DNA of 61,748 nt, counting the filler, from Sphacelaria rigidula (Eukaryota): assembly GCA_964200075.2 (NCBI GenBank). It is 7 parts of 7 records of this genome, joined end to end, with 100 filler letters (N's around TTAATTAATTAA, not from the genome) between each part and the next. Parts side by side here need not be neighbours in the genome. Positions count along the whole stretch, not along the records: positions 26,509 to 35,243 come from CAXNAA020010234.1; 6 more parts are not named here. One strand, 5' to 3'. Every line of letters begins with the position of its first letter. Position 1 is the stretch's first letter. Shown here piece by piece: positions 8,737 through 57,369 of this stretch. A program made the position numbers and the translations under genes. The notes beneath the pieces were generated by a model. The model did not search any database. It was not told the origin of the DNA and saw only the letters and a list, made by a program, of their open reading frames with translations.

Positions 8737-8836
8737 NNNNNNNNNNNNNNNNNNNNNNNNNNNNNNNNNNNNNNNNNNNNTTAATTAATTAANNNNNNNN
8801 NNNNNNNNNNNNNNNNNNNNNNNNNNNNNNNNNNNN
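8737..8836. other. Assembly gap with TTAATTAATTAA linker (similar at ~17573, 26409, 35244, 44079, 52914)
   Basis: Identical N-run/TTAATTAATTAA/N-run blocks; scaffolding artefact. Confidence 0.97.
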
Positions 8837-10928: not shown

Positions 10929-11045
10929 GACACTTCCTACGATAGCCCCCCCCCCAAAAAAAAAGTGCATGGTTTTGGGAGGCAAAATCTTCACGTAAAT
11001 TGAAATGGGAAAAGCCGAGCACAACGAGAAGCTTGGAATTCCCAC
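10929..11045 (+). mobile_element. Partial (one-ended) copy of the MULE-like MITE at 44587
   Basis: GACACTTCCTACGATAGCCCCC..GGAGGCAAAATCTTCA..AATTGAAATGG..CGAGCACAACGAG matches 44587-44700. Confidence 0.75.
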
Positions 11046-11338
11046 GCTTGTCTCCACCGCACTTCATTTTTTCACCGTAAAAAAATGCATGCTACTGCAG
11101 TAAGAAACGCACAAGTCGCGACAGAAATGAAAAGAGTGGGGAACGAAGCAAGCGCCCACAAGCGAAACGTTAACTGTTCACCCGCCGTGGGCCGCTTCGA
11201 AAAATAGACGTGCTGCTTCAAGTTCGGACGCTTGGTTCGTTTCTTGCTCCCCTTTTTCTTGTCGCGATACGACGGGGTCTCATCTCTTCCGCTTCAAACC
11301 CGCCGTACGCCTTGCTGGTGAGATATACAAATAGGTTC

Positions 11339-14907: not shown

Positions 14908-17672
14908 CCACTTTTTTTACACAACCATATAATATATCGTGGCAAGAGCGAAAGTGGCCGCAAACATTTCCCTCGTTTGCTAGAGTCATACCCTCTGTTC
15001 AGAAGTACTCTCAGAGCGTATTTTAGTTTCGCTTTTCTTCGCTAGGTCTATCATGAGACTACGGCTTGACCCCTGGAGGGGTCGGTTAATGTGCGACAAT
15101 CAATCATCAATCACTTCACCCATTTACATGAGGGGCAATTTTGCTCTAACCGAGAAGTCGATTGCATGTGTCTCGAGTCTGGGGTACTCCCCTTGTGCAG
15201 TACTTCAGACAACCAATCGCGTTGCCAAACGAGAATGCTATGATGAGCGACAGCTTGGGACAACCGCTACAGACACGCAGTGAGCCTTCACCAGCGATGA
15301 CACGCATGACGAAATCGATTGGCAGGCATATTTCGGCTTTGCCAATGCGCCCCGCCCAGATCGACCCGTCCTGCCCAATCCACCCTGAGCTTCAGGCGAC
15401 CTTGATTCCTTTTTCTCGACCCTCTTCTTGTATCAGATCTTCAGAACAAGCCCTCGAGTAATCTGCCCCACCAATGCTCCGACATTTTTGTTTTCAAGTC
15501 TTCATTCTCACGACGGGTGCACGTGCACGCGCTGAAATTCGGTACCATGTATGTCCGCCGAACGAGCTGGTGGCGGGTATGAGGGCGGGCACCTTACCAT
15601 GGTGCCAACCGACACGTGTTACCATCTATCTGCACTATTCCGTTGATCCGTCCCGTGCCGTACTGGACTCGAGTACTGTATTTCACCTCGTATGTATACT
15701 GCTGTATTTAACACGCATCGCGGGGTTGTCTGCCAGAGCTGACCGGCCGGCGTATATCTGGCTGTACAGGCAGATTCACAGAACCCGCGTGTACGATAGA
15801 ACCAGTTTCAAAGCACGTTCGAGCAGATTCGCCGGGCTAAGAAGAAGGAACACACTATTTTCTGATCTTGACCCTCAGACAGCGAGAGTAGGTCATCTGC
15901 TGAATCGGCATCAATTTCAATTGAAAAAAGTATGCATGATCCAGATAGACTACCCTCGCGTTCTAAGGGTTAATAGTTAATAGAGGTATCTCAAACTCGG
16001 CTCCAGGTGTCCTGGTTTGTTTTCCCTTATTTTTTCAAGTGGAAGTGATGCCGATTCATCAGATGATGAGACCCTTTGACCGCCAGGTCAGGTCCTCCTC
16101 TGAATCGCGATCACTTTCAGTTGAAAAAATAGCACACGACTCAGAGCCAGCGAATAAACCAGGATACCGGGAGCCGAGTTTGAGATACAGTACCATTACA
16201 ATAATAAGACGGGATGTTACAAATTGGGAATGGATCTTTCATTGAGGATGAGAAACCAGATCCGGAGAATTAAAATATTCGTATCCACTCCGAATCTTCG
16301 AAATACGGTTCGATTTCTCCACCAACTGACAGCTATTGACAACTGCTACACAAAGTAGGAATTTGGATTTCGATCGCCGACGTATTTGAGTCCTAGGTGG
16401 AAAACCAATTTTGGGGCATTCCGGGTTTCCGAACAGACGCCAAAATGGTTCCGAAATTGGTTTTTCACCTCGATCCCCAACATTTTGGTGTTTGCTTCGG
16501 CTCAAGATTTCTGGTATTATTATGTGTTGTCCCGTTTTTACGTACGGCAGTGTCTCACTAGAATTACCGCAAATTAAAATGCCTGCAACCGGAAACAAAT
16601 CGAACTCAATGCGGTATGTACTGGGTGCATTTTTTGTCCCCATCAACTCATCAACAACTACATACTATTAATCAGGCTAACCCGAAAATCAACGCTGACG
16701 ATTATGTTATTCCTATCCCCTGCGGAGCTATCCACCACTCCCCCTACTATTACGGTAGAGCTACTCCGCACAGTCACCTATCCACTTTTGCACCCTGGTT
16801 TCACCCTTTCTTGAGCGACGGGGCGGCGGGTGGGAAAGTCGATCGACCCTCTGCGAAACGCGCTAGTTCGTGCCTACTTCTCCCTAGTTGTGCTGCATAT
16901 ACCAGTCGGCCGCTGCTAGATGAATGCTTCTTGTTGCTGGTGATAGTATCTGTACTCGTGTGTGCGGCAACCTAGCTGCGATGGCCAACTTTTCTACTGG
17001 CAGCGGCACTGCAGCTGGGAAACAAGGACATACACCGTTGTTATGGATATTGGATAAACCCCAGGCACTGTGGGCAGTGGCTGCGTCTCTCGATATTAGT
17101 CGAGACGTGATGACACTTGCAGCGGATAACACAAGAGAAGTAGGAAGAAACTTCCGTGCTGTAGAGATGATGATGTGACGATTGAATGTGGCGCTGAGGT
17201 GGCCAATACGGCACAGCAACCATACATGGGGATAATTTTGTAGCAAAAAAAATTATTTGCGCGAAGCGCGATCACGTTCGAGCGTTCAAGATCGGCACCC
17301 TGCACAGACTGAGGGCCCGTTCAAAATCAGCCGAGGAACTCAAACATGAAACATGTACTGTTTCACTGTACTGCAGCACAAACACACTCACGTCCGCTCT
17401 CATGTGCTGCAGCTATCACTGTTCTGTGGTGTGTTTGGAGCTTGCGAAGACTTTTTGGTCTCCGCTGAGATTGCTGGATGTGCTGTATTGTTGTGTTCGT
17501 CTGTCTGTAATCTATAGTATCAGTCGGGACGCAGTGCTGGCTACACACTTGACTGTCTGTTGAAAACTTCATNNNNNNNNNNNNNNNNNNNNNNNNNNNN
17601 NNNNNNNNNNNNNNNNTTAATTAATTAANNNNNNNNNNNNNNNNNNNNNNNNNNNNNNNNNNNNNNNNNNNN

Positions 17673-17789: not shown

Positions 17790-19600
17790 TCGCACGGCGA
17801 CCACAAGTCCCGACGTCATCTCTCTTCGTGACCTCCCGCTCTTCCGCTCCATTCCCACGCGTACATCACCAAAGACGATAGCAATCGCAAGCTTGCCCTT
17901 CTTCATAACGTCCTACTCATCCGCTCCAACTACTACGCGCATCTCACCCAGGGCGACAACAGATCCCAACTTTGTCTTTCTTCATGATGTCTTGCTCTCA
18001 CTACCACACGCACACCACCCAGGGCGACACCAGTCGCAAGTTTGCCCTTCTCCATGACACCCTGCTCGTCCACTCCTGCTACCACGCGTACATCACCCAG
18101 GGCGACCACAAACCTCAAGCTCATCCTCCTCCATGACCGCCCGCTCATCCGCTTCCACTACAACGCGTGCACCGCCCAGAGCGACAACAAACCCCAAGCT
18201 AGTCTCTCTTTACGACGCCCCGTTCATCCCATCCCACTATCCCCTGTGCACTATCTAGGGCGATAACACATCCCAAGCTTGTCCTTCTTCATGTCATCCT
18301 GTTCATTTGCCCGCACTTCCACACGCATACATTGCCGAGGGCGTTCATCCATTCCCCCACCCTAATGTACATCGCCCATAGCGAGCACCCATCCCGAGCT
18401 CGCCTTTCTCCATGTCGTCCCGCTCACCCGCTCCCACTCCCACGCGTTCACTAACCAGCGCGAATACACATGTCAAGTTCGCCCTACTCCATGACGTCGT
18501 GCTCATCCGCCCCCAGTACCCCCGTACACTATCCAGGGCGACAACACATCCCAAGCTCTTTATTCTCTATGCCGTCCCGTTGATTCACCCCCACTACCAC
18601 ACGTGACCACCACTCGGGGTGACAACAAATCCTAAGCTCGTCTCTTTTCCTGACCTCCCGCTCATCCGCTCCTCCTCCCACGCATACCCTCTCCGGGGCC
18701 ACCACGAAGCCCATGCTTGTCCTACTCCATGATGCCCTGCTCATCCGTCCCCAATATCACACGTGCGCCACCCAGGGTGACAGCAGATCTCAACTTTGTC
18801 CATCTCCTTCCGTTCATTCGCCCCCACTACCGCACGCGTACACCACCTAGGGCGACCACAGATCCTAAGCATGTCTCTTTTCGTAATACCGTGCTCTTCC
18901 GCCCTCCTTCCCTCGCTTACATCGCCTAGGGCGACCACGAATCCGAAGCTTGCAAATCCCTATGACGCCTCCTTCATCCAACCCCACTACTACACATAAA
19001 CTATCGCCCTTCTCCATGACATCTTGCTCATCCGCCCTCTCTACCACGCGCACATCATCCGGCTTTACCCTAAATCCCTGGCTAGTCAGACTCCACGAGG
19101 TCCTGCTCATCTGCTCCAGCACAACGCGCACACGACCTAGAGCGACAACAAATCCTAAGCTGGTGTTTCATTATGAGGTCGTGGTCATCCGCCCCCACGA
19201 CCACGCGTGCACCGCCCAGGTAACCCCAGCTCGTCCTTTCCGATGACGTTTCGCTCATCCGCCCTCACTATCTTGCGAATAGTATCCAGGGCGACCACAA
19301 ATCCCAAGCTTGTCTCTCTTAATGACCTCCTCCTCATTCACTCCCACTACCAAACACGTACACCGCCAAGGGCGAGAACAAACCCCGAGCTTGACCTACT
19401 CCATGACGTCCCACTCATCCGCCGACACTGCCATACGCGCGCACAGCCCAGGGCGACAATACGTCACAAGCTTGTCTCTCTCCGTGACGTCCCTCTCATC
19501 TGCCGACACTACCACAACCGGGCATTCTCCAGGACGGCAACAAGCCCCAAGCTCGATTTCCTCCACAAGTAAGCCCCCCTTCCCCCTCCCCGTTTCCACC
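17790..19600. repeat. Degenerate ~79-81 bp tandem minisatellite, about 22 units
   Basis: Recurrent CAGGGCGAC(A/C)ACAAATCCCAAGCT..CATGAC..GCTCATCCGC..CACTAC..CGTACA. Unit anchors at 17950, 18021, 18099, 18178, 18257, 18338, 18457, 18535, 18616, 18695, 18774, 18849, 18928 ... 19369, 19450, 19531. Confidence 0.92.
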
Positions 19601-20069
19601 CCCACGCGTGGGCCACCCACATCCACGGCTGCTTTCAGAATTGACTTTCTCCACAAGTCAGCCTCCAGCCTTCGTCGCCTCCCCCTCTCATGCAGATACC
19701 TCATCAGGGAACAAGATACCTCAGATCCTACTCCTTCCACAGTTAAACCCCTGTCCCATCTCCACCCTGTGAAGTATGACACCTCCGGTACACGTGCAGG
19801 TGCATAATACGCCACCTGTTGGTACAGCGGACAGGATATGACGTTTACGTCAGATTAGGGCATGGAATCTTCTCTAGAGTGAACATGACTACTTGATATA
19901 TGATACATGTGAACGAAGATGCAACGTCGCATTCGGTAACGCACACTGCGTTTGTGAACAATATCTGTCTGGAAGCCTCCAAGCCCCAGAAAAGGAGGAG
20001 GCCCTTGGAGCAGTCCTATGACCCTGTTCTGAGTCCAGGAGGGTTCGTAACCCTCACTCTCGCAAGTGA

Positions 20070-21170
20070 ACTACTCAGGGTGACATCAGATTTCAAGCTC
20101 GCCTTCCCCGACGAGCAAGTCCTTTTCCTTACCCCGCCCCCGCTCTCCCGCGCATTCCAACAAGGGCAACGACAATGCCAAAGTCGCCTCCCCTAACAAT
20201 GAAGACATCTTCCTTAAGGCCTCTTCCTTGCCCAATTCCATTCCCCAAAGTACACCACGCAACATGGAGTTCCAAACTCGACGGGTGCTCCGCAAGCAGG
20301 TCCTCCCCTTCTCCGAATTCCTTTCAAAGCAGGCCCTGCCCCCTCGATTCCCGCCCCCCTCCCTGCGTAAAGCTCGCCTGCTAGAGCGCATCCCATGGGT
20401 GATACCCGGCGTATATCACCCAAGGCGGCAACAAATCCTGAGCTCGTCTCATTGCCTTTCTGCCCATCTGTCCCCCGCACTCTCACACGTACATCACCCG
20501 GGACGACAAGACATGTTGAAGTCGACTTCCTCCACAAGCAAGTGCTACCCCTTTTTCATCTCTTCTCCTGCGTGGACCAAACGAAGCGACAGCAAAACTT
20601 CCAAAGGTAAAGCTCTATGCCGCCCTCATGTTCACTGCCACGCGTGCAGTACCCAGCTTAACAACTAACAAATCCCAGGTTCACCTCCCCAACGAGTACG
20701 TCTCCCTTTCCTTCCCCTGCCCCGACTTTCATGCCTATTCCAACAAGGGCGGCAACAAATATCGAACTCGATCCTCTCAAGAAACAAGGTATTTTCCTCC
20801 CTCGTCGCCATTCCCGCTCGTGCACCACTCAAGGCGACAACAAGCCCGAGGTTCGACGTGCTCAGAAAGTAAGCCTTTTCTCTTCCCGATTTTCCTCGTA
20901 AACAAGCGCTGCCTCCCGTTTCCGCCACCCTGCCCACGTGAAAATCGTCCGCTACAAGTCATACCATCGGTGATGTACGTGGTATATCACCCAGGGCAAC
21001 GACGAATCCCAAGCCCGACTACCTCCACAAGCAACCCCCCCCTTCTTCCGCACCTCCTACGCACATCCCGTCTGACCCTAGGAGTATCACGGGTGATACA
21101 CGGAGTGAAGAGGGTATCACCCAGGGAGGCAACAAGTCCCAAGTTCGATTCCCTGTACGAGCATACCGTC
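20070..21170. repeat. Second, more diverged block of the same minisatellite
   Basis: Repeated CAGGGC(G/A)AC..AATCCCAAG(C/T)TCGAC..CCTCCACAAGCAAG motifs with irregular spacing. Confidence 0.75.
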
Positions 21171-22257
21171 CCACTGCCAAAATATTCCATTCCAACTGCT
21201 GTTCCAGTCTGCTTCATCGTCCATAGGTCAATCAAGTGAGGGCCAACGCACACAACGCCACACTCTCCGTGTGAGAGCAGGTGATTTCTCGATTAAGAAG
21301 TATGTTAACACCCGTGCGGGGCATGTGCGCAGGGGTCACGTACTGCTGTCGGCCGTCCATGTGTTACGATCACGTCATCAACTTATTCGATGCTCACCAA
21401 TCGCCACCCCGCGTCCAAACTTCCAACCTTGCTCTAAGCCGAACCTGCCAACTAGTAAAGGATCTGTATCTATGCATATGGTGATACAATATTGTCTTGA
21501 GTTCCCCTGCTTCATGTTTCTTTTCTACAACCATACCACCAAGTAATCGATATGTTAGGACGCCCACCAACAATTACCACCACCACAACCCCGACTTTTC
21601 AACTCAGGCGGTGCATGCCTCAGCATATGAAACACTCATGTCCACCACGGCGGCAAATACAGGCGCCAAACATCATACTGCACTGCTTGGGAGAAGAGGC
21701 ATCTTCCGGGCTACCCCCAGCACCGAGCTGAACACCGATCGACGACGTGGTAAAGCGACGGGCACAGGGGGTGGGGGAAGGGGGCTCCCGTTGCTGCATT
21801 TTCCTCTCTTTCCTCTATCATCAATCAAGCGCGAGTGTAATCCCTTGACTGCTCGGGTGTGTCAATCTACTAAATCAACGTCACATTCACGTTGGAAACT
21901 AAATTTGGAAAATGGCTGTCAGATTCAGGCGTCCATCCGCTGGCGCCGAAAGGGTTGGCCTTTCCGTCGCCTTTCCCGGGACGAGCACGCGGTCTCAAGG
22001 GCCAATCCATGCGCCCACCTCTTCACCGATGGACACGGTGGGGCGAGAAATACGCGAGGGGGGGGGAGGGCTTCGAAGTATCCGTGCGTCTACCCCCGTG
22101 TCATCTGCCTTCCTGAGTGCCTTAATAATGTACCGTCTTTATTGAACTATTTCCCCGGAACTTGCCTTGCATTTTGCTTCCTTTCAAGATGATTGAATCA
22201 GCACTACTACCCGCCACCCGGCTGTTCTTGATTTTTCTCTCCCCCCTCCATACCACA

Positions 22258-22336: not shown

Positions 22337-24081
22337 CCCCCCTCCATACCACATATCCTTCTCATGCTTTTGAACGATCTGGTGAAACAAAAACAGGGCG
22401 TATATAAACATGTGTGTGCGCGCGTAAACACAGCGCTACTGCGCGAATAATATAGAATAGTGCAGGGTACGGAGATTAAGAATGAGGAGGAGATCATCGT
22501 TGCCGTCTAAGGTATTGTACAACTAAAACGGCTTTCATGCGCACTAAAGTATTCCGACGGAGAGACCGGTGGGACAATATTGCCGTTGTGTCTCTTGAAA
22601 GACCTGTTTCCTTCACGAATTCTAGGCCAAATAAAAAAAAAAGACGCAAGAGTTATCCTAGCAGTGACCACTATATCACTCTGTACAGGGTCAACAACGT
22701 CGTATGTTAGCATGTGTCGATGCTTAGGTCCCGCTCGGTACTATCTACTGTAGTGCGGTGAAGAACGCACAGGTTGCGAGAGCACTGATCCAATGCTCGA
22801 TATCGGGGTGTCAGGCAGGTACACGGGCAGATAGAAACCTTGGCTGATTGCTGGAGTCTACGCACCCATCACGAGGAAGCGCACGGGGGGCCGTTGAAAG
22901 TAGAATCTGAATACATGAACACATGGCAAAGATTTACAGCCTGGTTCGTGCAGTATCAGTATTGCAAGCTGGCTCCCGAGTACCGGTCTACCTGTCGGTT
23001 ATTCGCATACTAAGGTGCGCTGTCGGTAACCTGGCTAGTCCTGCCAGCGGTTGGTGGGGGAGGGCTTCGAGTGCCGGAGGTTTCATGTGAATGGGGTCGT
23101 TTCCATGTCGATGCTGCGTAAATCGTGTCATGTGCTGCACTCCGTTGTTGTGGGAGGTCCTTGTACGCTGTGCGAATTCTCATGTGACGGAAAAAAAGTC
23201 GTGCGCGTGCAGGCAGTAACGTATGGAAGTGCCAAACGTTGTAAAGTAGCACATTGCTGCACGGTATAGGGTACTTACTGTACTACCTCTTGAAACCGCA
23301 CGTTGTATTACAATCCCAGTACACTACAGCACAGGACATGGTTGGACCGTCGAGCAGAAAAAATGTCACTGTACAGTGCCATGCGAGCAATACCGCCCTC
23401 GATTTGTTTTTCGCCAGCGGGGTGCTTCCGTTTATTCACCTCGAGTACTTACCTGCCCTCTCTCTCCCCCCTTGGCCACGACTCACGACTCGATTATAAC
23501 TCTCAACTCTCTCAATCGATATATCAAAACGCGGGTGCGAACACTTGTTAACAATAAGACAATGGGCAGAGTCGACAGGACTGCAGTACTTACTCGTAGC
23601 CAAGAACTCAACCAATCGACCAACCAACTCCTCGACTAACCGACCAACCGATCTATTTCGCGTCGAGACTTACCGTCAGAGTCTGCGTGTGTGCTGGTAG
23701 CTCAACCTTCGCCTCCTGAACTTTCCCCCCAGCAAGGGGTCATTTCACCAGGTCCACCATGTACCCTCTTGCTCGCGCCTCTGGGTTCGAACCTCTCTTC
23801 GGTGTTGCCTGTATAAGCATTTACTTACACACACGAATATAGACGCCATTCATTTACGACAACAACAAAAAACAGCGAGTTACTTGTTCCAGCTCAAATG
23901 AACTTCATCTAAGCAAAAGCAAGATGATACATGATTTGTCTGCTGCATACAACACCACCTCAACCGTCCGACAAAAAACATCAGAACACACAGCAACATT
24001 TCGTCGTCCCATATTTCAGGCTTGCTCGAAAATTATCGTCACCATCACCATCATCCATTATGGGTACCTACCTACAACTTT

Positions 24082-24445
24082 GAGTAAGCAGGAGGAAAAC
24101 GATGAAATGAAAGGAAGCTCGGGGGTGGCCAGGGGATGGTGCCGTATCTGAGGCACATGGAATTTTCACCGGGTTGCAATACCGAGTATGTCAGGATTCC
24201 GGGGAGTAACAGTATTTCTACGAATTTGTATTTCTATTTTTTCTTTATGTTGTGTGTTTTTTTTTCTTCGAGTAAGCAGGAGGAAAACGATGAAATGAAA
24301 GGAAGCTCGGGATTGGCCAGGGGATGGTGCCGTATCTGAGGTACCTGGAATTTTCCCCGGGTTGCAATACCGAGTATGTCAGGATTCCGGGGGGTATCAG
24401 TATTTATATTAATTTCTATTTCTATTTTTTTCCTTCTGTTGTGTG
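24082..24445. repeat. Tandem duplication of a 188-bp unit
   Basis: GAGTAAGCAGGAGGAAAACGATGAAATGAAAGGAAGCTCGGG starts at 24082 and 24270; both units end in TTTCTA/T-rich tracts. Confidence 0.9.
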
Positions 24446-25315
24446 TTTTCCTTCTCAGTCCACTATGCCGTTCTGTTGTACCTTTTCTGTGTTCTTCTCG
24501 TTTTGTGTTAAGCGAGTGTTTCAGTTTTTTTTCATTTCGGGTACGTGCGTCTATCATGTGACCACGACTGTATCCCTGGGGAAGTCAGTCAAAGTGAGAC
24601 AATCAACCAACCAACCACTCAATCAATCATCAGCTAAAAATTACCGTCCCGTGCTACTCTCCAACCACCGATGGAAAAAGACACATTGGTCATTGATCAG
24701 CAAAAGAACCGAAACAGATGAAGCGAATCAATCCACGACACACGCCACCCTTGAGAGAAACTAATGTGGAGGATGAAGTAAAAAATAATAAAGTGAATCA
24801 ATCACCTCCTGAGACCCGTGGGAAATCCTGTCGTCGGCGACTTCGTCCTCTCCCTCCTCCTCTCATGCCCTCGCTCCCCCTCTCCATCAAATACACCAGT
24901 GCCCCCCCTACTTGAACAAGGGAACCGATCCACCACAGCGGTGGGGACGGCGGGGGCGCACAAGAGGAGAAGAAGAAGAAAAGTGAAGAGAGAGAGAGGA
25001 CGGAAGTGTAAGGCGTGTGGTACTCAGAGTTCAGGGACATAAGAGAAGAACACAGGAGATCCGTAGCTTCATGACCTCAGTGGTTGACAGAAATACGAAC
25101 AAAGGGAAAAGTAGACCAAGAGATACAATGCAACTACGTTGACGTGTGACGTTTTCAATTTCGTCGATCATGGCTCCGTATCTAATGAACGACCTCATAT
25201 GACGCAACTGAAAGCTAGCCCAAGAATGTGCTTAACAGGTGCTTCACATGACCCCATCTACCAAGATCCTGGAGCGTACCGCGCGTCAGAACAATCCAGA
25301 TTCGTCATACGGTCC

Positions 25316-25350
<35 letters not shown>

Positions 25351-25699
25351 CCCCCCCCCCCCACCCCCCCCNNNNNNNNNNCCCACAATGCCCCCCTCTC
25401 CCAAGATCCTGGAGCCCCCCCCCCGTCAGAACAATCCAGATTCGTCATACGGCCCCCCCCCCCCCCCCCCTCCCTTGACGGTTGCATCGCCTCAGGACGT
25501 GAACGTTCACTATCTCAGCGTTTAGTTTTTGAAACAAATAGAGAAAGGGGAGAGGTTATCATGTCAAGTATTTGAAAAGAAATAGGGAAATAGGGCAGCT
25601 CTCAGCGGTTCCCAACAATCGGTTGTACCGGCGTTGTTGTGTCGGATAACTCCACGGTTGGGACGAAAAAAATCATGATTCAACTCATATTCAACATCT

Positions 25700-26150: not shown

Positions 26151-26639
26151 GGCGCGCCTCTTCGGTGGCGCGGTCCTTTTGCAGGTAGGGTGGGCAAATA
26201 AGAGCAAACAGATCCCGAACCCCTCAAGAGCCAAATCCGCAGTAGACTCAGTTTCAAATTTGTACCAACACCTAACACATCAACTACAGCACAATACACG
26301 CGTCTGCGTGGCCAGCGCGTTTTTTTCTGGGCAGTTCGCCGGCCACCTAGCGATTAACTGCTCCCGTACGAACGCGAGCTTGGGGCGGAAGAACTTGAAA
26401 CAAATAGGNNNNNNNNNNNNNNNNNNNNNNNNNNNNNNNNNNNNNNNNNNNNTTAATTAATTAANNNNNNNNNNNNNNNNNNNNNNNNNNNNNNNNNNNN
26501 NNNNNNNNCGCCCACATGAGAGGCGTGTAGCAGTCCGAAATCAGCTATTACGCCCAAATGAGTCGTGTCGTGCAGCACGAAACCAGCTCTAACGGCGTTA
26601 CTGATCATCCCCTCCGTGCACTTTTTTAGCCGATTCGGG

Positions 26640-28795
26640 GGGTGGCTATCTCGGCAACAGTCATACTGTGCGAGATTTCTCTGCCGGCTTTTCGGTGGAT
26701 AATTCCATGCAGAGCTCCAGGGCCGCGTGGACTACCGTCTACCATCGGGTCTTAGTTGCCTTGGGTCTATATCTGGACCAAGGCGCGCAACTTCCGGTGG
26801 CAGACCCGCATGCTCTGACGCTAGCCCAGCTTGTGGCACGCACCCAAACGGGCCGCAACGATGGTGCCGACAGCTACAACAGAGCCACTCATAGCCTTAT
26901 GTAAGCCTTGCAAGACGCGTTTCACTCCGGTACCTCCACTGATGACGACAACGACAATGACGATGACGAATGGACTCCGGTCAATGCAAACTGTCGGCCG
27001 CACAACAACAACGGCGACAATGATGACCGCCAGGGTGGCGGACGCGTGGGTCGCCGCCACGGTTCCGGATCCTCCGGTGGCGGACGCCGAGGATCTAATT
27101 CTTGACGGACGGTCGGCAGCAAACAGTACCCAAATTGGAAACGTTCGGGATCTGGCTCGTCGGACAGCTCGTCCCGCAAACCCCGTAACCGGAACGAGTC
27201 GACGACTGATCCGCCGTCGGTCAACTCTATCAATGTCAGGCGAGAAACCCCTCGCTTAGCTGATGTTTCCCGCGAGTTATTAGGTTTGTCTGGCATTGAT
27301 GACAAAGATCGACCTTAATCTTCGACCTCGGCCCGCACTTTAGCTGCCGCCGCGGCTAGCCAAGCACAGACCGCAGCCCGCGAGGCTGCAGCAGCTGCTA
27401 AGGCTGAGGCTGCTCGGGTAGCTGCTATCCAGAGAGAGTACATACAGATAGATGTTAAGAAACTTTGGCATATTAACACCATGCCCATAGCGGACAATGA
27501 GGACTCAGGACAGTTTACCTCGAGTCTTATTCACTCCATTCGTGGTACTGTACACAATATTCTGCAGTTTGCGGATCGCACGGGTGATCAGCGCTATGAA
27601 AATCCCGTTTGGGTTCATGGTTGGCAGACGCCGTTACATAAGGCCCTACACCGCGCCATCTCTCGCCGCTCGCCTGACCTTGCCTCTTCACTGACGCAAA
27701 TCATCAATGGGTCCATCGCAGCGATGGATTCGGACCGTGCCTTGGGGCGAACTGGCCCAACGATACTCCGTGATTTGGAGCGGCGTTTGACCGACTAGTT
27801 CGATCGTAGTACCGAGGGCAGCTCCACTCAGCGACTAAGCTCGTCTGGTGTAGCCACGGACGTGCCTTTTTCCGACTACCTTCGTCAGTTTAAGTTGTTG
27901 GCTTCCAGAACTTTGAGAACTGGACGCCAGAGCGGCCCTTCTGATTCTACGTGTCAGTCTTATGTCCGTACGAACGTGTCTCAGCAGTCCCCGGCATTGA
28001 TGCCGTCGTTATTTCCGGGTGTCCTAGCACACCGCGAGGTGCCGTACGCCTCCGTGGACGCAATGTGGACAGCTTTTGTTCACCAAGAAAGCAATCTCAC
28101 TCCCGCCATTGGGGGTGATAAATATTTGTCTCCGCGCTCACAGCCTGCCACTGTCTCCTTCGCGAACACCTACGGGTCTCGCGGACGGAATTCGAGTTCA
28201 TCTCGTGCTACATGGACCCCCGCCTCTGTCGCCGGTTCAGTAATGAGTACTAGAAGTAACAAAGACCCATTCTGCGCATTTTGACGCATGGCCGTACTCT
28301 GAGAAGACATGGGACGATGTTTATCTGACTTCTACAACAGCTTTTGTGACGGATGATCCCCATTTGTGAAACCCGCTTCTGTCTTCTTCGGCTAGACACG
28401 ACGCTTTCAGCCGCCACGCCAATAAATATATCAATTACAATGTACAAGGCCGCAGCATGTGTGACTGTGACAACTCATGCATAAGCGCATTCGATCTCAT
28501 GAACTCTGAACTACAGGTCAATAAACCCGCGTGGCGCCGATGGCAGAAACGAATGCGCGACTATCGTACTCCAAATCGTAATGATCACCACCATTCGAAT
28601 TCTCGCGGCAACTATCGCTTTAATCGAGAGCGCCGACACAACAACAACCATAGTTCTGGCACTCGCCAACGAGATAATACTTCTCGCGCCAATCATGGTT
28701 CCGCTGATAGACACCAGCGAACGGGACCGACACATAGCTCGAACTCCAACACCAGAAACCCTGTTACCTTCACTTTGAATCGCATAAATCCATGA
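26640..28795 (+). pseudogene. gag: gag-like ORF1 of the Gypsy element (disrupted)
   Basis: ORFs 26668, 26908, 27481 and 27862 share one frame separated by single stops (..VATDVPFSDYLRQFKLL..), followed by a frameshifted Cys-containing segment. Assigned mainly by position upstream of pol. Confidence 0.7.
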
Positions 28796-29899
28796 CGCGC
28801 CAACGTCGGCGTCCTAAAGTCTTCGGCACCGCCGACAGCACTTTCGAAGACTTTTTCATCACAGCCCGCGAAACTAGCAACAAATATTTCTCCCTCAGTC
28901 CCCCCGGAATTTTGCAGCAGCACAACTGACGGCCGCTCGAATCTATCCCCGTCTTCACCTCTTCGCATACAGCGTGATAGGAGCACTAATGACAGCCGCT
29001 CGAATCGACCCCCGTCTGCACCTCCTCGCATACAGCGTAACAATTGCGTGAACTCACGACTTAGCTCTACGCTCGGCTCTGAACTTGCTCCTTCAGAACT
29101 GAGTGTAAATCTGAGGTGTGGGAACACCGGCCGCCCGTCCCTGAAACAAAGGCTTCCCTCAGCGACAAGTAGTGCATCTCACTCAACTGGTTCAAGTGTC
29201 GCTGGTCTCAATTTGACCACTTCGGGCCAAGTAACACCCACCTAGCTCGAACGAGATCGTTCTTCGCGTTTATTACACCACGCGAGAGTACCCCTGATAG
29301 GTTTCAAGAATAAGCGTCCCGATTCACCAACGCCTATGACTCCTTAGCCAAGCTTGCCAACGGAAAGTCCACAAGCTTCGCCCGAGCATGCCCCGATGCT
29401 GACCCCATCCACACGGCTGGACGCAGTCGTGTTGCCCCAACAAGTTTGGAAGTTCCCCGACCATCGTCACGGCGAAAGAGGAAGCCCCGTAAAGGTGCCC
29501 CCAAGGAAGCGCGCGCATCATCACGCACACCTCTTTCGAGTGGAAAACCTCTACCTCAATCTCTCCAAAATGCGACGACTTTACGCTCGACGGCTTTATC
29601 AAGCATCACGGGAGAAGCGAATTCACATGTTTCTGACGCCACTGCTTCTTCAATCGACGGCCCTTACAACGCACAATCTGGATCCACCTTGGATGTTGAT
29701 CTCTGCGTACCCAAGACGGTCATCTACGAAATCGCTAAGGATCATTCTAACCGTGCCTCACCTGGGAATCATATACCGTCCACCACCTTTTCTGGTGAAA
29801 AACCTGACCCACCGGCGGATCACTGCCCGTCCGTTTTTGCTGTCAGCCCCGCCGATCCTGACCAATTTACCTTGCCGAAACATGGTCCGGATCTTGTCG

Positions 29900-32800
29900 G
29901 CGGTAAAGTGTCTGTGGACCCGACCACTTTCACTACACGCGTCGCGATCCATTAGGGTCCAAACGCTACCACGCCTACGAAAGGCATATCTCTGTTGGAT
30001 AGCGGCAGCCCGCAAACGTTCATTCGACAGTGAACATGGAAATACATGAAACAAACTGGCGCTGCTACCGCACCTTGTGACACCACCACCCAACCTCGAG
30101 TATGGGGCGGCTTCGGCGATTCTACCGCACCTCTGACAACATGAAAATCCGTACGTCTCAGTGTGCAATTGTTTTACAATACCACTCGTTCTGCCAGCCT
30201 GGCCGTCTGGGCATACATTTTCCCCGACAGCACCATGCATCACGTCATATTATTGGGCAGAGATAGCTGTATGCGGTTTGATAAGCAAACCTACCGCACA
30301 CTTCCACCACTATCACCACAATCCACGTCTCGAGGAGAATTTAACCTTTACCACTTTGGTACACCCCACGGTGCTCTGACCTACCAAAAGAATACTCAAG
30401 CAACCGGAGCTGTTTCCCACCTACGATACAATGGTAGTGTTGGTATTACCTTCTCCGACGATCCTCAACTTTTAGAAGTTGCGCTATGGGATGCCTGCCC
30501 TTACGGGGCATTATCTTGCCGAAATGTAACCCCGTATAGGTGCACCAGCCGACACAGAACATTTTGTCTCGGCGGGACAACAACTTCTCCCTCTCACGGG
30601 ACATGCTAACTTGGAACCCGGCGATATTTTAGGAATCGTCGCCGCTCCCCTGATGCACATCCCACTTGAGAGGTGCGTAACGGAGCCTGCCGAGTCCGAC
30701 GCACAATCTCCGACGGAGTCAGTCCATTGTGTCGATGAACCTTTTTTCGACCTCGCCTCCGAGACTCCACCCCAGATCCACACCGTGGATCCTGCCCAAT
30801 CAAATTCCGATCCTCCTGCTCAAGTGCTCCAACGCTTATCACCAGATTCTCGGAAGAGTTTCTTGCAAATGTGGAACTAACTGCCGCCACACATGCGTGA
30901 TATCAATTTTGACCTTCATTGGCCCGGCTGGGAACCAGCAGTCATCCAAGAACTCAGTGATATCCTGCTACAGTACCAAGACCGATTATTCAGATCCAAA
31001 ACGGATCTTGGGCACTGCAAAACGCTGCTCTTTGAGGTTACACTCCAACCCGGGGTCTCGCCAATATCGTCGCGACCATACCGGACAAACCCAATCCTTA
31101 CCAAAAGAGTGAATGTCATCTTAGATGCATATTTGGGAGCGGGATTAAGACAACATTCCTCTTCTCCGTGAGCCTCGCCACTTGTGATCGTCCCCAAAAA
31201 GGATGAAAACAAACGCATACCCGTGATCTACCAACGGTTGAACCACGTCACTGTGATTGGTAAACTTCCGATCCCCCGCATCGATGAAGTCTTCGACTCC
31301 TTAGGCGAAGGAAAAATATTCAGCACCTTCGACCTCGCTTCTGGATTTTTCCAGAAAGCTATACACCCTGACACAGTCGCACTCACGGCCTTCTGTACCT
31401 CGTCCGGGCTCTACAAGTGGCTTCGAATGCCACAAGGCGCGGCCACTGCCCCGGGATGCTTTCAAAGCTTAATGCCACGCGTCACCGAGGGCCTCGAGCA
31501 CATCATCATGTATCTCGACGACGCCATCGCTTTCGCTGCCTCACCTATTGCACACAGCCGCACTCTACGAGAATTTCTCTCTCGTTTACGAACACATGAC
31601 TCGAAATTGTCTCCATCCAAGCTCGCCTTGGTGCGACTGACTTGGACTTCCTGGGACATTTCATTTCGCCAGTAGGCCTACATCCGGATACAAACGAAGT
31701 CAAGGCGATGACTGACTTACCGATGCCCGCCAACATTTCTCAACTTCGCTTATTGTCGGGCGGACTATCCTACTACCGAAATGTTTTGCCTAATTTATCC
31801 AAACGAATTTGCCCCCTTACTGAGCTACTCAAGAAAAGAGCCGTGTTTACCTTCACCATCGATATGCAGAATATCACCCGCGAATTGCTGAAAACGCTCA
31901 CCGAAAAACCGGTACTCTGTTTCCCTGATTGGGGGGCAGTACAAGATGGCTCTCGCCTTTTCCAACTACACACTGACGCCAGCACAGACGGATTTGGAGG
32001 AGTTTTGAATCAACTACAGGTTGACGGCTCCATTCGACCCATCCTCTACATCAGCCGCGCCACCCTGCCCAACGAGGCCAACTGGAGCCCGCTAGAATTG
32101 GAGAGCGGAGTAATTACCTGGGCCATTAAGCGCCTCCGACAATATCTGTTTCACGTGCCATTTGAGATCTTCACGGATCATGGGGCACTCGGACAACTCG
32201 CCAAGCTTGGCGAACACAACCCGCGTGTGCAATGATGGTTGACATTTCTAACAGCGTACCAGTATACCGTGAAGCACCATCTAGGCAAAACCAACGGAAA
32301 CGCTCACCTGCTTTTCACCCCTGCCGCCTACGGCCGCAGATTTCAGCCCGGTTTGCCGTTTAACAGACCCCGATGAACCTGGGATTTACCCTGTTGGACG
32401 AACTTCAACGCTCGTTTATGCCCTTGACCTACAGTGTCCAGAGACTGGTATGGACATGGGAGGACTTCGCCCTTTACAATATGACGCCGTCCTGGGTGGG
32501 TTAAAACCCACTCCCTCCGATTTTACCGATTCCCGCGCTTCTGGTACTCGCGCGAACCATTTCACGGAGACACCTTCGGTCATCCACCTAATCTCCGATA
32601 ACACGCGCTCCCAGTCTACCTCCGGCACCACGCCCCCGAGTGCCCCGCCGCCACCGATAACATCTACAAATCCCACGAGCCACACAGCACCGGTCCAACG
32701 GACCAGTAAGCAACGCTCCGCGAAAAATACTGCAACATCCACCACGCACCGCGATGAATCTTCGCCGCGCACTGCTACGACCCCGCCGCCCATAACGGCG

Positions 32801-35139
32801 CCGCCTCCAACTACCGCTCCCGAGCACAGAGCTGGGGACTCAGCTCCTGCTCCCGGGGCAGATATTGACGTCGGCATTTCTGCCCCGTCGCCTATTCCCC
32901 CGCTGCCAACCCCACCATGTTTGGTCGGCTCTCCAGCGGAAGGTCAACTACGCGAGTTCCTCGCCCGCTACTCTCACCGTGATTGGGCCCGCCAACAAAA
33001 CGCGGAACCTTTGTGTCGCGCAGCCATCCAGTACTTGCAGCTTGACTGCCCAGTCCCTTTTCCATCCGCCATCCTGGCCCCGGTTGGCACACTGCCACCC
33101 CCAGATACTTCTGACGTATACGAACTCGTGCGCAAAGGCACCACTTTTACTACGGTTGAAAACGTACAACTCCTCGTGCGCCGACCCACGCCTTTGACGG
33201 GCGCACTTTCCGTCGCAACCACGGGACGTCACGCACGACTACTCAATGACGAACCAACGCGCATATATGTCCCCTTATTAATGCGTCCCTGGGTCATGAA
33301 AGGCTGCCACACGGACTTGTCATGTCACCTTGGCGTCACTCGCACCTTAGCGCTCCTGGAACGCTTCTACTGGTGGATTGGTATGGAAATTTCCACCCGC
33401 TTCTAGAATCGGCGATGCCTCAAATGCCAAGCTCGAAAAACTTCACGACAAACAGTACGCTGGCCCGTCATCTCTATGGCACTCCCCAACGCCCCAGGCC
33501 ACCTTGTGTCCTTTGACTACTTTGGCCATCTACCAACCACAGATCGCGGCAACACTTACATGTTACTCTTCACTGACCGCTTGAGCCGCCACGCGTCCAT
33601 GTACGCGGTAACCGCTGTAGATTTCACTGCCGTCGGGACGACCGATATATTGGCCCACGACTACATTAAGTACTACGGTTGTCCGGAACGACTCCTTTCA
33701 TACAATGGTCAGCAATTTTGCTCAGATCTCTCTGATGAGCTTTACAAGCTCCTGGGCATCCGCAAAATTGCTACAAGCGCCTACCACCCTCATGGTAACG
33801 GTGGTACCGAAAGAGTTAATCACACCATGGCTCAGATGCTCTCTATGGCCGTCGATGACCGTCAAAATGACTAGGACCTACACCTCTCGCACATCATGCT
33901 GTCCTACAACAACTCGCTTAACGCCGCCACAGGCCTTTCCCCGAACGAACTCCATCTCGGATGCTACCGTTGGCTGCTCATCACCGTGTTTGAGCAACAC
34001 ACGTTCGACGACCACGAAGGATTAGATCCGGGCCAGATATCCTATCACGAGCTAGCACATTCACGACCACGCAAAGCGTTTATCCTCGTGCGCGAACAAC
34101 ATGCCATCAATGCCTCGTGCCTTGAGAGATCTAACACTGCTCTCTACAACCTCATACACAAACGCCCCAACTGGAAAGTTGGTGATTGAGTTTGGATCTA
34201 CAACAGTAGTTTGTCGACCATTCGCCAAGGCACCAGCAAGACAACCAACGGAAGAAGTTTGAAGACGAAATTGTCCCTCAATTGGGGAGGATCATTCAAG
34301 ATCCTGACAGTCGGACCATCGTCATCACCACCGGATGGTAAACCCGTTGGTGACAAATTGCTCTATATCTCGACTTGCCTCGCGACTTCCAGGGCAAGGA
34401 GACCATACCCGGCGTCTCCGTGCACAGATGCAAAACCTCCACGAACCCGCATGATACAAGTGACATGCCCAAGTACCTACCTGCCGAGCTCACATAGTAT
34501 GTTCTCAACAGCTACTCCACCAAGTCCCCGCCCTACCACGTTACAACAGACGACGTAACGGAACAGCCCCTCCGATTGACCGTGTCCACTATTTCCGGCC
34601 ATCAGATACCCTGTCGTGGTCGAGGTGGTCAAATCGCTGTCATGTGGAAGATGGACTGGCACGGTCTCCGGAGAGCGTCTTGGGAACGCAACTCCGACCT
34701 TTAACTGCACCGCCGTGCAATCCTCGTGTACTGGACGCAGTCCCAACATCAGCATCCTGCTCACAACAAGAAATATCGCAACATGCGTCGTGGCGCAGCA
34801 GCCTGCGAACTTCACCGCGATCAGGGACTACGCTTTGTCGCCGATGGTTACAAACGTGTACCCACCAAGACTTGTAAGACGAAGTTCTTCGCAAACCAGC
34901 GAATACTGCCCAAGGGCAGCTACCTTTGATTCAAAGGCAGCGACAACCTCTGGTGGTTGGGTCAGACCCACTCCGCTAACCTATTTTCGGCCGACACATA
35001 CATCGTGCGCTTCATCGATGACCCTGGACCCATACAGCTCGAGCTCCGGCCAGCACTATATACCACCAGCCCATCTGCACCACGCGGATCCTGGTGCCTC
35101 CAACACCTCAATCCCGAAGGACTTCGCCGCGATCTCTAG
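29900..35139 (+). pseudogene. pol: pol polyprotein remnant: aspartic protease, RT, RNase H, integrase, GPY/F-like region, chromodomain, extra C-terminal module
   Basis: LLDSGS at 29992-30009; SRPYR and FSTFDLASGFFQ; RMPQG; YLDD at 31511-31522; LHTDASTDGFGGVL and ELE (RNase H); H..H..CLKC zinc finger; SFDYFG, TDRLSR, NGQQF, NGGTERVN (integrase core); ISGHQ..W.G..SWE..DL at 34591-34701. Confidence 0.95.
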
Positions 35140-35404
35140 CGCAACATCGACCACACCCACGATGTCCACTCCCCGTTTTGAACCACGCTCCTTCGTCGCA
35201 ACTGTTGCCCCCCCCCCGCCCCCCCCCCGCCCCCCTCCCCCCCNNNNNNNNNNNNNNNNNNNNNNNNNNNNNNNNNNNNNNNNNNNNTTAATTAATTAAN
35301 NNNNNNNNNNNNNNNNNNNNNNNNNNNNNNNNNNNNNNNNNNNTTGTGTGTTGTGCGCGGGGGGGGTGGGGGCGGGGCCGCGGCCCCCCTGGGGGGCGGG
35401 GGCC

Positions 35405-35490
35405 GGGGGGGGGGGGGGGGGGGCACACTTATTTGTCGCTTGCCTTCGTCATTTTGAACATTGACCACGCATCCCTTTCGAGACGGAGCA
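35405..35490 (-). mobile_element. Poly(C)-tailed short element copy
   Basis: G-run followed by CACACTTATTTGTCGCTTGCCTTCGTC..ATTGACCACGCATCCCTTTCGAGACGGAGCACCG. TSD cannot be assessed next to the gap. Confidence 0.8.
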
Positions 35491-41589: not shown

Positions 41590-42285
41590 TATCACCCAAA
41601 AAACACCCATCGGCAGAACCTCACGCCGTTTCAAGGAGTTAGATTCCGAAATTTTGCACAAATGTTCTATGGGGCATTACCCAACTTTCTAAGGTCGAGG
41701 TTTTTCGACTTTTTGACTTTTTCACTGTTTTTCGGGGGTTCCAGTTTTTTGCGGGAAACATCGATCTAATCGGACCCCCGTAAAATGTAAAGAAAACAAA
41801 ACTAAAAAAAACCTCGTTCATACAAGGTTGCATAATGACCCATAGCACAGCTGTGCGATTTTTTAGGGTCTAAATCATTGAAACTGCGTGAGGTTTTTCT
41901 TTTTTGTGCGATGAACTTTGACGTGCCGTGGTGAAACCGCAAACTACTTGATTTTAGTACCGAAACGGCGTTTTTGGGCCTTCTTTGACGTGAACATAAA
42001 AACTCAAGCATCAGTTGATCGAGTTTTGCGACAAAGGTTTGTGAGATCCTTCCTCCGATTATGCAGGTACAGCTCGCTCACGAAAAATTGAAAATGAGTA
42101 TCGTCTTGTCGGTTTTCTCGGATCCCAAAATGTAGACTACTTCGAAAACCAGGTGGACCCCTGTCGGACCCCCATAAAACGGTAAAAACCTCAAGAAGTA
42201 AAAAAATATGATCCATAGAAAGTTGCGTAATGACACATAGCATATTTTTGCAAAGTTTCAGGATCTAACTCCCAACAACGGCGGC
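41590..42285. repeat. Second copy of the 9905-10380 inverted-arm repeat, with an additional arm
   Basis: Shared AAAAAACAC(G/C)CATCGGCA(A/G)AACCTC(G/A)CGCCGTTTC and TCAAGCATCAGTTGATCGAGTTTTGCGAC. Confidence 0.8.
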
Positions 42286-43496: not shown

Positions 43497-43778
43497 TATC
43501 ATTATCGTCATCATTGGTATCATTATTATTATCATTATATCCGTCACATTAGCTCGATCTCTGAAACCCGTGGTCACAGAGTGGAAGGAGCTTACCATCC
43601 ATACCCACTAGTCAAACAGCCCGCAGAGGAAGGCGAGAAATAAAATACCTGCACGAAAAAAGCCACCTACGCCACGAAAGATCCGTGAAAGGCTGGTTGA
43701 ACTCCAGAAGATCTAGTGGAAGCTTGAATGTCCCGGCGTGCGACCTCTCCGTCTAGCTTGCCACGTACTGGTGTATCA
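43497..43778 (-). mobile_element. Non-LTR retroelement 3' fragment with (TAA)n/(TGA)n-like tail
   Basis: Homologous to 58283-58548 (TATCCGTCACATTAGCTCGATCT..ACCCGTGGTCACAGAGTG..TTGCCACGTACTGGTGTAT), abutting (ATT/ATC)n tracts. Confidence 0.65.
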
Positions 43779-44198
43779 TGCACGACATTCATGTGGATCA
43801 TTGACCTGGTTCGAGGCGGTCATCTTCGGTTTTTTGTGCTACAAGCTGGTTCAGATTGAACGCACAGAATTTTGACCCCGGGAATTCCTCACGCCGTTTT
43901 TCCGAGTTAGACCACGAAATTTTGCACACATATTCTGGAAGGCAGTGTCTTAAACTTGAAGAGTTTTTATTAATTCATTTGGGGCTTCGCTCTCGAGATA
44001 GCCGGGATCTGACCCCCCGCGCCCGCTCGCGCCCGGCCCAGCCCGCCGCCAACGGTGCCGCGCCGGGACCCGCGCCCCNNNNNNNNNNNNNNNNNNNNNN
44101 NNNNNNNNNNNNNNNNNNNNNNTTAATTAATTAANNNNNNNNNNNNNNNNNNNNNNNNNNNNNNNNNNNNNNNNNNNNGAAAATGACTGAAAATGATG

Positions 44199-44586: not shown

Positions 44587-44845
44587 GACACTTTCTACGA
44601 TAGCTCCCCCCCCCCAAAACGTGACTGGTTTGAGGAGGCAAAATCTTCATGGAAATTGAAATGGAAAAAGTCGAGCACAACGAGCAGGTGGGAGTTCCCA
44701 CTCTTGGGCTCGTTCTCGCCGATGTCGCCCATATGAGGCGCTTCATGCAGCCTGAACCCAAACATCAGGTGCTGTATGACCATTTGTTTCATGGCACTTT
44801 TGGGCTGGTTCTGGGGGGGGGGGAGAGGCTATCGTAGAAAGTGTC
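44587..44845. mobile_element. 259-bp MITE with 18-bp TIRs, MULE-like
   Basis: GACACTTTCTACGATAGC / GCTATCGTAGAAAGTGTC. Flanks TTTTGTTTT and TTTTGTGGT could be a 9-bp TSD with 2 mismatches. Confidence 0.8.
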
Positions 44846-52913: not shown

Positions 52914-53081
52914 NNNNNNNNNNNNNNNNNNNNNNNNNNNNNNNNNNNNNNNNNNNNTTAATTAATTAANNNNNNNNNNNNNNNNNNNNNNNNNNNNNNN
53001 NNNNNNNNNNNNNAGGAGAACACTGTTTTAGGCTTGAACCTCATCTCGGAGTTAAACCTCAATTCGCACAATTTGTTGTTA

Positions 53082-56400: not shown

Positions 56401-57369
56401 CTCACTTGTTATTATCACCGAATGATCCTCAATAGACCACATCAAGAGCCAGACAGCAAGGGGCCACACAGATGAGGGTCATCAACCCAGGATCCTCTGT
56501 CCCCTGCGACTGCTCCAATCATGCATGCGATTGTACTGAAACCTATCGCTTGGTATCATTTAGCTACAAGCTATTTCACTATCTCCTAGACCGCGAGGGT
56601 AGTCCATCTGGATCGTGCATCCCTTTTTCATGTGAAATCGATGCCGACTCAACAGATGACCTATTCTCGCCATCTAAGGGTTAACAGGCCCCCACCCCCC
56701 CCTCAACACCCCCCCCCCCCCCCCCCCCCCACAAACCCCCAAAATTCCACTGCGGAAGCCACCAACAATCCCNNNNNNNNNNAGTGGACAAAACACTTCA
56801 CCTTTTCGCGCCACGTAAGGGTTCACCGCCCCCCACCCCCCCGCCCACCCCCCCCCCCCCCCTCCCCTTGAAAAGCCCCAGATGTTTCCGGATTGTTAGC
56901 AGTCGAAATGTCGTCTCCAGGAAATCTCACAGGGCCATTATAGCATATCTCACAAGTGTAGTCTTGAGGTGATATGGGGCCAGTGGCGAGGACCTATTAA
57001 TAACACTCATATTCAGCAATCAGCCATGTACTACTACTACTGCATTTCATTTGCGACAGTGGGATGATCGTGACGTGAGACTAGGTATAATGATTTTGTG
57101 GCTGTTGTATAACATTATTGACTTACGTTCGAAGACCTCAGGAACAGATGTCACACGTAGACAGATCGCACCCTGTAGCACGTGCTGCACAGGGTTCTTC
57201 GCAGTCTTTGTGAAAACCTCTGAACAGCATTTGCAAACCCTAGTACTTCTACCAGCATTTTGTGTAGCGTTTTTCTCGAGACCCTGTTAGCAACCCTGTA
57301 GAGAGGCACTCCCAATTTGAAACGTACACATTTTTTGGTATAAAATCTATAAACTTACTTATTTTGAGA

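Follow-up and report, generated by a model that had tools for sequence, protein, structure and literature searches.

The window analysed here is a stretch of 61,748 nucleotides from Sphacelaria rigidula (assembly GCA_964200075.2). One of its contig units (26509..35243, 8,735 bp, with artificial linkers on both sides) carries on the plus strand the decayed pol of a Ty3/Gypsy retrotransposon (29812..35181), and the C-terminal tail of its integrase is the subject of this report. The extent of pol was set by tblastn of three relatives (P0264, P0007 and P0006; P numbers are our handles for related proteins) against the window, in which the intact relatives aligned from 29812 to about 35172. Pfam identified a reverse transcriptase (RVT_1, 31172..31675, E=3.2e-19), an RNase H (RT_RNaseH, 31951..32232, E=3.2e-23, residues 118-211 of the open reading frame (ORF) 31600-32235), the integrase zinc-binding domain (Integrase_H2C2, 33272..33388, E=3.4e-07) and the integrase catalytic core (rve, 33488..33790, E=1e-06). 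The rve score of the decayed copy, 29.3 bits, falls below the 32.6-bit cut-off, and relatives reach E=1e-09. These four domains follow one another on the plus strand in the order of a Ty3/Gypsy (Metaviridae) pol, as they do in intact relatives. Downstream lies the integrase C-terminal 'GPF' region (LNWGGSFKILTVGP ... VSVHRCK, 34190..34434), which was placed from ORF translations, the relatives' alignment and the tblastn path. An earlier reading made from the DNA letters by themselves (the sequence-only reading) had assigned the segment 34561-35139 to the end of a Gypsy integrase, and the upstream domains support this assignment.

The tblastn path of the intact relatives through pol runs in frames 1, 2, 1, 2, 1, with at least four frame changes, and the frames followed contain 14 stop codons. 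The copy is therefore dead and unable to make protein. One of the frame changes, near 34363-34369, falls inside the GPF region and is the sole connection of the tail frame to the rest of the integrase. A search for long terminal repeats (LTRs) gave no pair flanking the element; the contig breaks off 62 bp past the pol stop and does not include a 3' LTR. A Pfam scan of the approximately 4 kb upstream (26509-30488, three plus-strand frames) gave no match to gag, protease or NADAR profiles at E≤0.1.

Translation of 34561-35139 on the plus strand reproduced exactly the peptide quoted in the sequence-only reading, with its two internal stops, TAA (34702-34704) and TGA (34927-34929). A further stop lies upstream at 34495-34497. 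The TAG at 35137-35139 we regard as premature, because the reading parallels the C-terminus of the intact relative P0026 onward to a TGA at 35179-35181. Four segments can be distinguished in the tail, all on the plus strand. Module 1, the chromodomain (34567..34755), corresponds to residues 35-96 of the P0026 model and contains the TAA. A mostly helical, less conserved linker follows (34756..34905; helices 93-97, 101-118 and 133-141 of the same model); counted from '...ILVYW' (ending at 34734) to 'LPKGSYL' (starting at 34906), the interval comprises 57 residues, close to the 55 or so proposed. Module 2, a five-stranded Tudor-like barrel (34906..35109), was delimited from models, Foldseek, VIA-align and column counts, and contains the TGA. 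The suggestion that this TGA is a mutated TGG is compatible with the alignment, in which 45 of 50 relatives have tryptophan at that column. The remaining C-terminal stretch (35110..35181), placed from the P0026 alignment, ends at the family's usual stop, TGA 35179-35181, and is of low confidence: in both structural models described below, the predicted local distance difference test score (pLDDT) of the C-terminus is under 50.

The tail proved to be conserved in frame well beyond the window, as the sequence-only reading required. Using a read-through query of 255 residues with the stops entered as X, we matched 24 longer proteins (E down to 1e-71) and 88 proteins of similar size (E down to 4e-102). 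Intact polyproteins of 1618-1848 residues covered 95-100% of the tail at 40-52% identity, and the frame is kept in polyproteins of up to 2184 residues. The closest intact relative, P0026, is 73% identical to the window tail over 224 residues. When a tail profile was searched against 1.84 billion proteins it retrieved 1690 representatives, mostly fragments, at E≤1e-3; stricter limits left 1073 (E≤1e-10) or 294 (E≤1e-30). WWLG is invariant in an alignment of 29 sequences, and RGRGG, DDPGP and several tryptophans and tyrosines are nearly so. The landmarks of the two modules are 115 residues apart in most relatives that possess both, and 118 residues apart in the window copy. Between divergent intact polyproteins, the share of identical residues is 65-71% for module 1, 52-58% for module 2 and 57-61% for the reverse transcriptase; it is 33-46% for the linker and 28-33% for the spacer, free of domains, that separates RNase H from the integrase. 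Since both modules lie well above this spacer, both are under constraint. Judged from these alignments, the tail is a real, conserved C-terminal cassette of about 210 residues that follows the zinc finger, the catalytic core and the GPF region.

Predicted folds of the two modules

An AlphaFold2 model of the P0026 tail, built from an alignment of 50 sequences, reached a pLDDT of 79.8 and a predicted template modelling score (pTM) of 0.72. Module 1 is modelled as three strands (40-50, 56-64 and 71-74) forming an antiparallel sheet, followed by a C-terminal helix (75-91), which is the layout of a chromodomain. In a VIA-align comparison with 999 chains, all 50 among the matches listed were chromodomains or chromoshadow domains (Z 7.0-7.9), including Chd1, CDY1, Rhino, Chp1, MPP8, CBX proteins, HP1 and ZMET2. 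Root-mean-square deviations (rmsd) were 1.2-2.6 Å for domain-sized matches and the target domains were mostly covered in full; within these 999 chains none reached Z≥8. Chromoshadow chains (Z 7.0-7.5) scored as high as chromodomains. Pfam Chromo (PF00385) was matched by 3 of 9 relatives (E 0.017-0.098), by 13 of 50 (best 5e-06) and by 6 of 16 module-1 fragments (best 2.8e-4), and P0045 carries a precomputed PF00385 match. The chromodomain named in the sequence-only reading is thus supported by its predicted fold, in which module 1 is a chromodomain; the Pfam sequence support is weak.

Module 2 is marked by the signature LP.G..WYK..D..WWLG...Y.VRFLDDPGP...GSWCLQ. It was folded alone as the natural fragment P0171 (alignment of 40 sequences), with a pLDDT of 84.3. 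In the model, two helices with a short strand between them come before a barrel of five strands (45-49, 55-63, 71-76, 82-86 and 103-108), which corresponds to the five-stranded SH3-like barrel of Polycomb-like Tudor domains. The Royal-family barrel that the sequence-only reading had called for is therefore present in the model. All ten top Foldseek matches in the PDB were PHF1 or PHF19 Tudor domains (probability 1.0), which superimposed with an rmsd of 1.8-2.4 Å over 47-49 columns at 31-32% identity and a target TM score of 0.59-0.66. SND1, TDRD3, PHF20, SGF29, Spindlin and MTF2 came next, and the whole-tail model gave a similar picture. The Tudor domains of PHF1, PHF19 and MTF2 are readers of histone H3 trimethylated at lysine 36 (H3K36me3).

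A VIA-align scan of module 2, run all-against-all on 48,161 representative chains, returned 18 chains at Z≥5 and consisted mostly of Tudor, extended-Tudor, Spindlin, Agenet and MRG barrels (Z 4.4-5.6). Extended Tudor domains of Papi, TDRD1, Tudor, Qin and SND1 scored 5.0-5.6, with the preceding helix also covered; Spindlin-4 (Z 5.5), the RDM15 Tudor domain (5.2) and PHF19 (4.9, 29% identity) stood lower in the scan. At the level of sequence, a whole-tail profile found the PHF19 Tudor domain as its best match among PDB sequences (E=0.015), with 'DGLYYLGKI' aligned to 'DGLWWLGKI'. The best ESM Atlas match to module 2 reached 0.89, under the 0.9 line, and its lower rows contained Spin/Ssty, Agenet and Tudor-knot clusters, which we treat as leads only. 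Among the viral structures of BFVD there was no match to module 2 at E≤1e-3, and only generic small barrels appeared.

Aromatic residues are densely conserved in module 2: a tryptophan in 45 of 50 relatives, a tyrosine in 45 of 50, the WW pair in 45-46 of 48, a tyrosine in 48 of 48, a phenylalanine in 42 of 48 and a tryptophan in 42 of 43. Three positions can be aligned with the Tudor cage, on the basis of what we take to be the cage residues of the PHF19 Tudor domain; two are aromatic, the second tryptophan of WW (46 of 48) and the phenylalanine of VRF (42 of 48), and one is serine, alanine or glycine. Taken together, module 2 is confidently predicted to be a Royal-family-type SH3-like barrel closest to Polycomb-like Tudor domains, a class assignment that follows from the predicted fold and from matches that are consistent and individually non-significant. 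An origin of module 2 by internal duplication was considered and found no support, the hhalign probability being 0.4% against the GPF region and 0.2% against module 1. A homologue search with module 2 of P0264 alone returned six close relatives only and was uninformative about other contexts.

Competing readings of the tail

We favour, with a probability of roughly 0.65, the reading that the integrase tail of this brown-alga-type Ty3/Gypsy element joins a chromodomain to a Tudor-like barrel through a helical linker of some 55 residues, and that it most likely tethers integration to chromatin. A number of observations weigh against it. Pfam Chromo is absent from 37 of the 50 relatives, and a profile of module 1 alone retrieved nothing from the PDB sequences at E≤10. 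For module 2, all Pfam matches are below cut-off (Agenet in 14 of 50, best 0.013; SH3_VIII-1_N in 5 of 50; Tudor_2 in one of 50, 0.052), Foldseek against the PDB gave no match at E≤1e-3, and the two best VIA-align rows were TraI translocation-signal domains (Z 6.2 and 5.6), with no chain at Z≥8. A profile restricted to module 2 placed an SH3 domain (E=0.12) before PHF19 (E=0.23), and the position of the PHF19 cage tryptophan is serine, alanine or glycine in 45 of 50 relatives. The element also sits alone on an isolated contig unit of 8.7 kb, so its insertion site is not readable.

The aromatic cage of module 1 belongs among these adverse points. Its register was taken from a sequence alignment with MPP8, and the cage was defined as Y24/W45/Y48 (PMC3350952). 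The Y24 equivalent is leucine in 31, isoleucine in 15, methionine in one and threonine in one of 48 relatives (leucine or isoleucine in 46), and the Y48 equivalent is leucine in 33, isoleucine in 14, proline in one and phenylalanine in one of 49 (leucine or isoleucine in 47); the W45 equivalent is tryptophan in 48 of 49. Module 1 thus lacks the classical (group I) cage, two of whose three aromatics are lost, and displays instead the pattern of group II chromodomains and chromoshadow domains, the likeness being one of pattern. The idea of a dual chromatin-reader module holds in so far as two Royal-family-like folds are predicted and are conserved in frame, and is qualified by the loss of two of the three cage aromatics from the chromodomain.

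The alternative that survives best, and that we nevertheless consider rather unlikely, takes module 2 for a generic SH3-like barrel that is no reader and serves, for instance, as a second DNA-binding or a multimerisation domain of the integrase or in protein-protein contacts of the SH3 type, and module 1 for a chromoshadow-like dimeriser; the two would then act in intasome assembly and not on histone marks. SH3 matches do rival the Tudor ones in the sequence searches (ASAP1 SH3, E=0.12-0.22; SH3_VIII-1_N also in 3 of 12 module-2 fragments, in addition to the 5 of 50 relatives), and the C-terminal domain of Rous sarcoma virus (RSV) integrase appears at rank 38 of the module 2 Foldseek list. The TraI domains at the head of the VIA-align scan and the chromoshadow scores of module 1, as high as those of chromodomains, point the same way, as does the missing pair of Y24 and Y48 equivalents, which the available text of PMC3350952 describes as typical of chromoshadow domains. 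Opposed to this, the ten best Foldseek matches, the sole ones near 30% identity, are methyl-lysine-binding Tudor domains; module 2 has no profile similarity to the integrase GPF region, by the hhalign comparison above; and its dense conserved aromatics would be what one expects of a reader cage.

A PWWP domain, reading H3K36me or methylated H4K20 together with DNA, is a very improbable identity for module 2. The sequence-only reading had described the segment as a PWWP/Tudor-like module, and the part of that description that stands is a Royal-family-like barrel with Tudor domains nearest. The motif G..(V/I)W.K ... WW.G ... Y.V.F.D fits PWWP superficially. The family reads (L/S/H)-W-W-L-G, and the position of the second proline of a PWWP-type motif is leucine in 47 of 48 relatives. 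Pfam PWWP (PF00855) was found in none of the 50 relatives at E≤1 and in one of the 12 module-2 fragments (E=0.12; another of the 12 matched Agenet). A single PWWP chain, that of Shuguo, appeared in the wide scan (Z 5.2, rmsd 3.0 Å, 57 residues), but this score is within the noise of other barrels. In both Foldseek lists Tudor chains rank ahead, and PWWP is not among the matches listed. Nor does a helical bundle follow the barrel, where the sole predicted helix has four residues and lies in a low-confidence stretch.

That the frame is open by chance, in decayed repeat DNA that encodes no real domain, can be set aside with near certainty: stops and frame changes do abound in the window copy, and its own tail has no Pfam match at E≤1, but the E values down to 4e-102 against independent intact proteins, the in-frame conservation in polyproteins of up to 2184 residues and the confident fold predictions refute it.

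Published relatives and proposed function

Two of the relatives have brown-algal source names, one being from Nemacystus decipiens and one an Undaria gene model (Undpi1). P0022 (eukprot Undpi1 gene model, 1080 residues) encodes a cyclic-nucleotide-binding protein kinase followed by an integrase-tail fragment that extends through module 1; here the gene model has probably been fused with a copy of the element that lies next to the gene or is inserted in it. P0264 (2184 residues) has a NADAR domain (PF08719) near its N-terminus (residues 205-354, E=1.7e-47), P0279 carries a precomputed NADAR match, and the relatives of 2184-2185 residues have this domain; P0264 and P0279 are 43-54% identical to the window copy along pol. 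NADAR was found in the window copy neither by tblastn of the relatives nor in the three-frame Pfam scan of 26509-30488. The ORFs P0006 and P0007 begin downstream of the position where NADAR would be expected.

Similar elements were recently described in Ectocarpus. The available text of a 2025 Genome Biology paper (PMC12477816) reports four Gypsy lineages, three of them, including ECR-1, with a putative C-terminal chromodomain. One of these three, exemplified by Gypsy-12_Ec32, carries NADAR as well, whereas the fourth, Gypsy-10_Ec32, ends in a Tudor domain and is presented as the first transposable element with such a domain. By the same account, neither chromoviruses nor the oomycete Chronos elements are phylogenetic relatives of the brown-algal lineages that bear chromodomains. 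P0264 and P0279 have NADAR in common with the Gypsy-12_Ec32 lineage, the window copy showing none, and the window family is most likely part of, or close to, that lineage, a placement drawn from the published descriptions. The paper's text and family notes, as far as available, mention no second reader after the chromodomain in the NADAR lineage (PMC12477816). Gypsy-10_Ec32 resembles the window family in that a brown-algal Gypsy integrase ends in a barrel of the Tudor type, but it is a separate lineage for which the accessible text mentions no chromodomain, and the likeness to module 2 is one of description only (PMC12477816). ECR-1, the Ectocarpus centromeric element, is likewise a brown-algal Gypsy element whose C-terminal chromodomain is proposed to direct integration, but in the portions of PMC11541908 at hand this chromodomain has all three cage aromatics and a second module goes unreported.

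The claim that such a module was unknown from described Gypsy lineages has therefore to be narrowed: single chromodomain and single Tudor fusions are on record in the 2025 paper (PMC12477816, available text), and what seems to stand is the tandem. Besides Gypsy-10_Ec32, our full-text literature searches found no Tudor or PWWP domain on an LTR-element integrase; the papers retrieved with PWWP dealt, to judge from titles and the openings of abstracts, with retroviral integration, Ty3 targeting and a Drosophila PWWP protein, and a preprint on brown-algal centromeres mentions chromodomains and not Tudor domains (bioRxiv 10.64898/2025.12.07.692804). Within the literature searched, the combination of chromodomain and Tudor-like barrel appears undescribed for any mobile element.

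The state of the chromodomain also seems new outside plants. In plant group II chromoviruses (Tekay, Galadriel and Reina) the integrase chromodomain lacks Y24, usually lacks Y48 and keeps W45, as here, and in the available text of PMC3350952 such chromodomains were, as of 2012, known solely from plant Gypsy elements, their ligand being still unknown. Chromoviruses differ from the window family in having one reader domain where two are predicted in the latter. Polycomb-like Tudor domains (PHF1, PHF19 and MTF2) resemble module 2 in fold and sequence (rmsd 1.8-2.4 Å and 29-32% identity across 47-55 residues, the strand 'DGL-aromatic-aromatic-LGKI' being common to both), but they belong to cellular proteins, their cage tryptophan is replaced by serine, alanine or glycine in module 2, and the statistics are sub-significant. 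A further parallel is LEDGF/p75, whose PWWP domain is a Royal-family reader that guides lentiviral integrase to marked chromatin. There the reader is a host cofactor that acts in trans, whereas the predicted readers of the window family are part of the integrase polypeptide.

The most likely function of the cassette would be to tether the integration complex to a feature of chromatin and so to bias where new copies insert. The analogy is with chromovirus chromodomains, which act in this manner according to the passages available from PMC3350952, PMC5348765 and PMC11541908, citing Gao et al. 2008. Of the two modules, the aromatic-rich barrel would be the more likely methyl-lysine reader; because the chromodomain keeps the central tryptophan only and the barrel is rich in aromatics, methyl-lysine recognition, if there is any, would fall mainly to the barrel. 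For the chromodomain, a partner protein or nucleic acid may be the ligand instead, or it may dimerise as chromoshadow domains do. The whole-tail model, with its pTM of 0.72, hints at a fixed mutual arrangement of the modules. Chromatin binding, its ligand and an effect on targeting are things we infer only, from modelled folds and by analogy. As a more tentative extension, it is possible that the two readers, a cage-less chromodomain and a Tudor-like barrel at constant spacing, form a fixed cassette of a whole brown-algal Gypsy family that reads a combined signal, or a mark together with a chromatin protein, in choosing insertion sites.

Nowhere is the choice of a landing site by mobile elements clearer than in fusions of integrases with chromatin readers. 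If the more tentative extension is true, no transposon integrase would have been known before to carry chromatin readers in tandem, and the tail would place a group-II-type chromodomain outside plants, in a system tractable for seeking the ligand of such chromodomains. The permanent pairing of a cage-less chromodomain with an aromatic-rich barrel suggests how targeting modules may build up, and it offers two separable domains for testing on histone peptides. Recent work on brown algae has described elements with chromodomains, centromere-specific ones among them (PMC11541908 and PMC12477816, in their available text; bioRxiv 10.64898/2025.12.07.692804), and the tandem would add a layer to the multiple independent acquisitions of chromatin readers reported there. 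The practical weight of the finding is moderate: the lineage is published, the copy is dead and its function is surmised from predicted folds.

Other features of the window

Identical 100-bp linkers occur at 8737-8836, 17573-17672, 26409-26508, 35244-35343, 44079-44178 and 52914-53013; the one beside the contig unit of the element (35244..35343) consists of 44 N, TTAATTAATTAA and 44 N. Because the linkers recur every 8,835-8,836 bp, we take the window to be a series of contigs that are equal in length and seem to have been sorted by size. Adjoining units are therefore not genomic neighbours, and the sequence flanking the unit that holds the element is unrelated to it. Further runs of 10 N lie at 25372-25381 and 56773-56782. 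Long, impure poly-C/poly-G runs abut the contig ends beside linkers at 35205-35243 and 35344-35424 and are also present at 25310-25474; they look like artefacts of sequencing or assembly and not like biology.

An ORF of 308 residues on the minus strand of a different contig unit (55057-55983) encodes a CCHC zinc knuckle (zf-CCHC, E=4.9e-07) and is probably the gag of another retroelement. A C-rich, degenerate tandem array at 17850-19553, with a unit of about 79-81 bp in at least 13 copies of 60-75% identity, lies where the GC skew of the window is most strongly negative (18001-22000), and a unit of 188 bp is present in two tandem copies of 91-93% identity at 24078-24449. Dispersed repeats of 80-86% identity are shared between contig units (10137-10394 with 41840-42090, 10950-11050 with 44606-44706 and 43522-43662 with 58287-58427) and are further repeat families.

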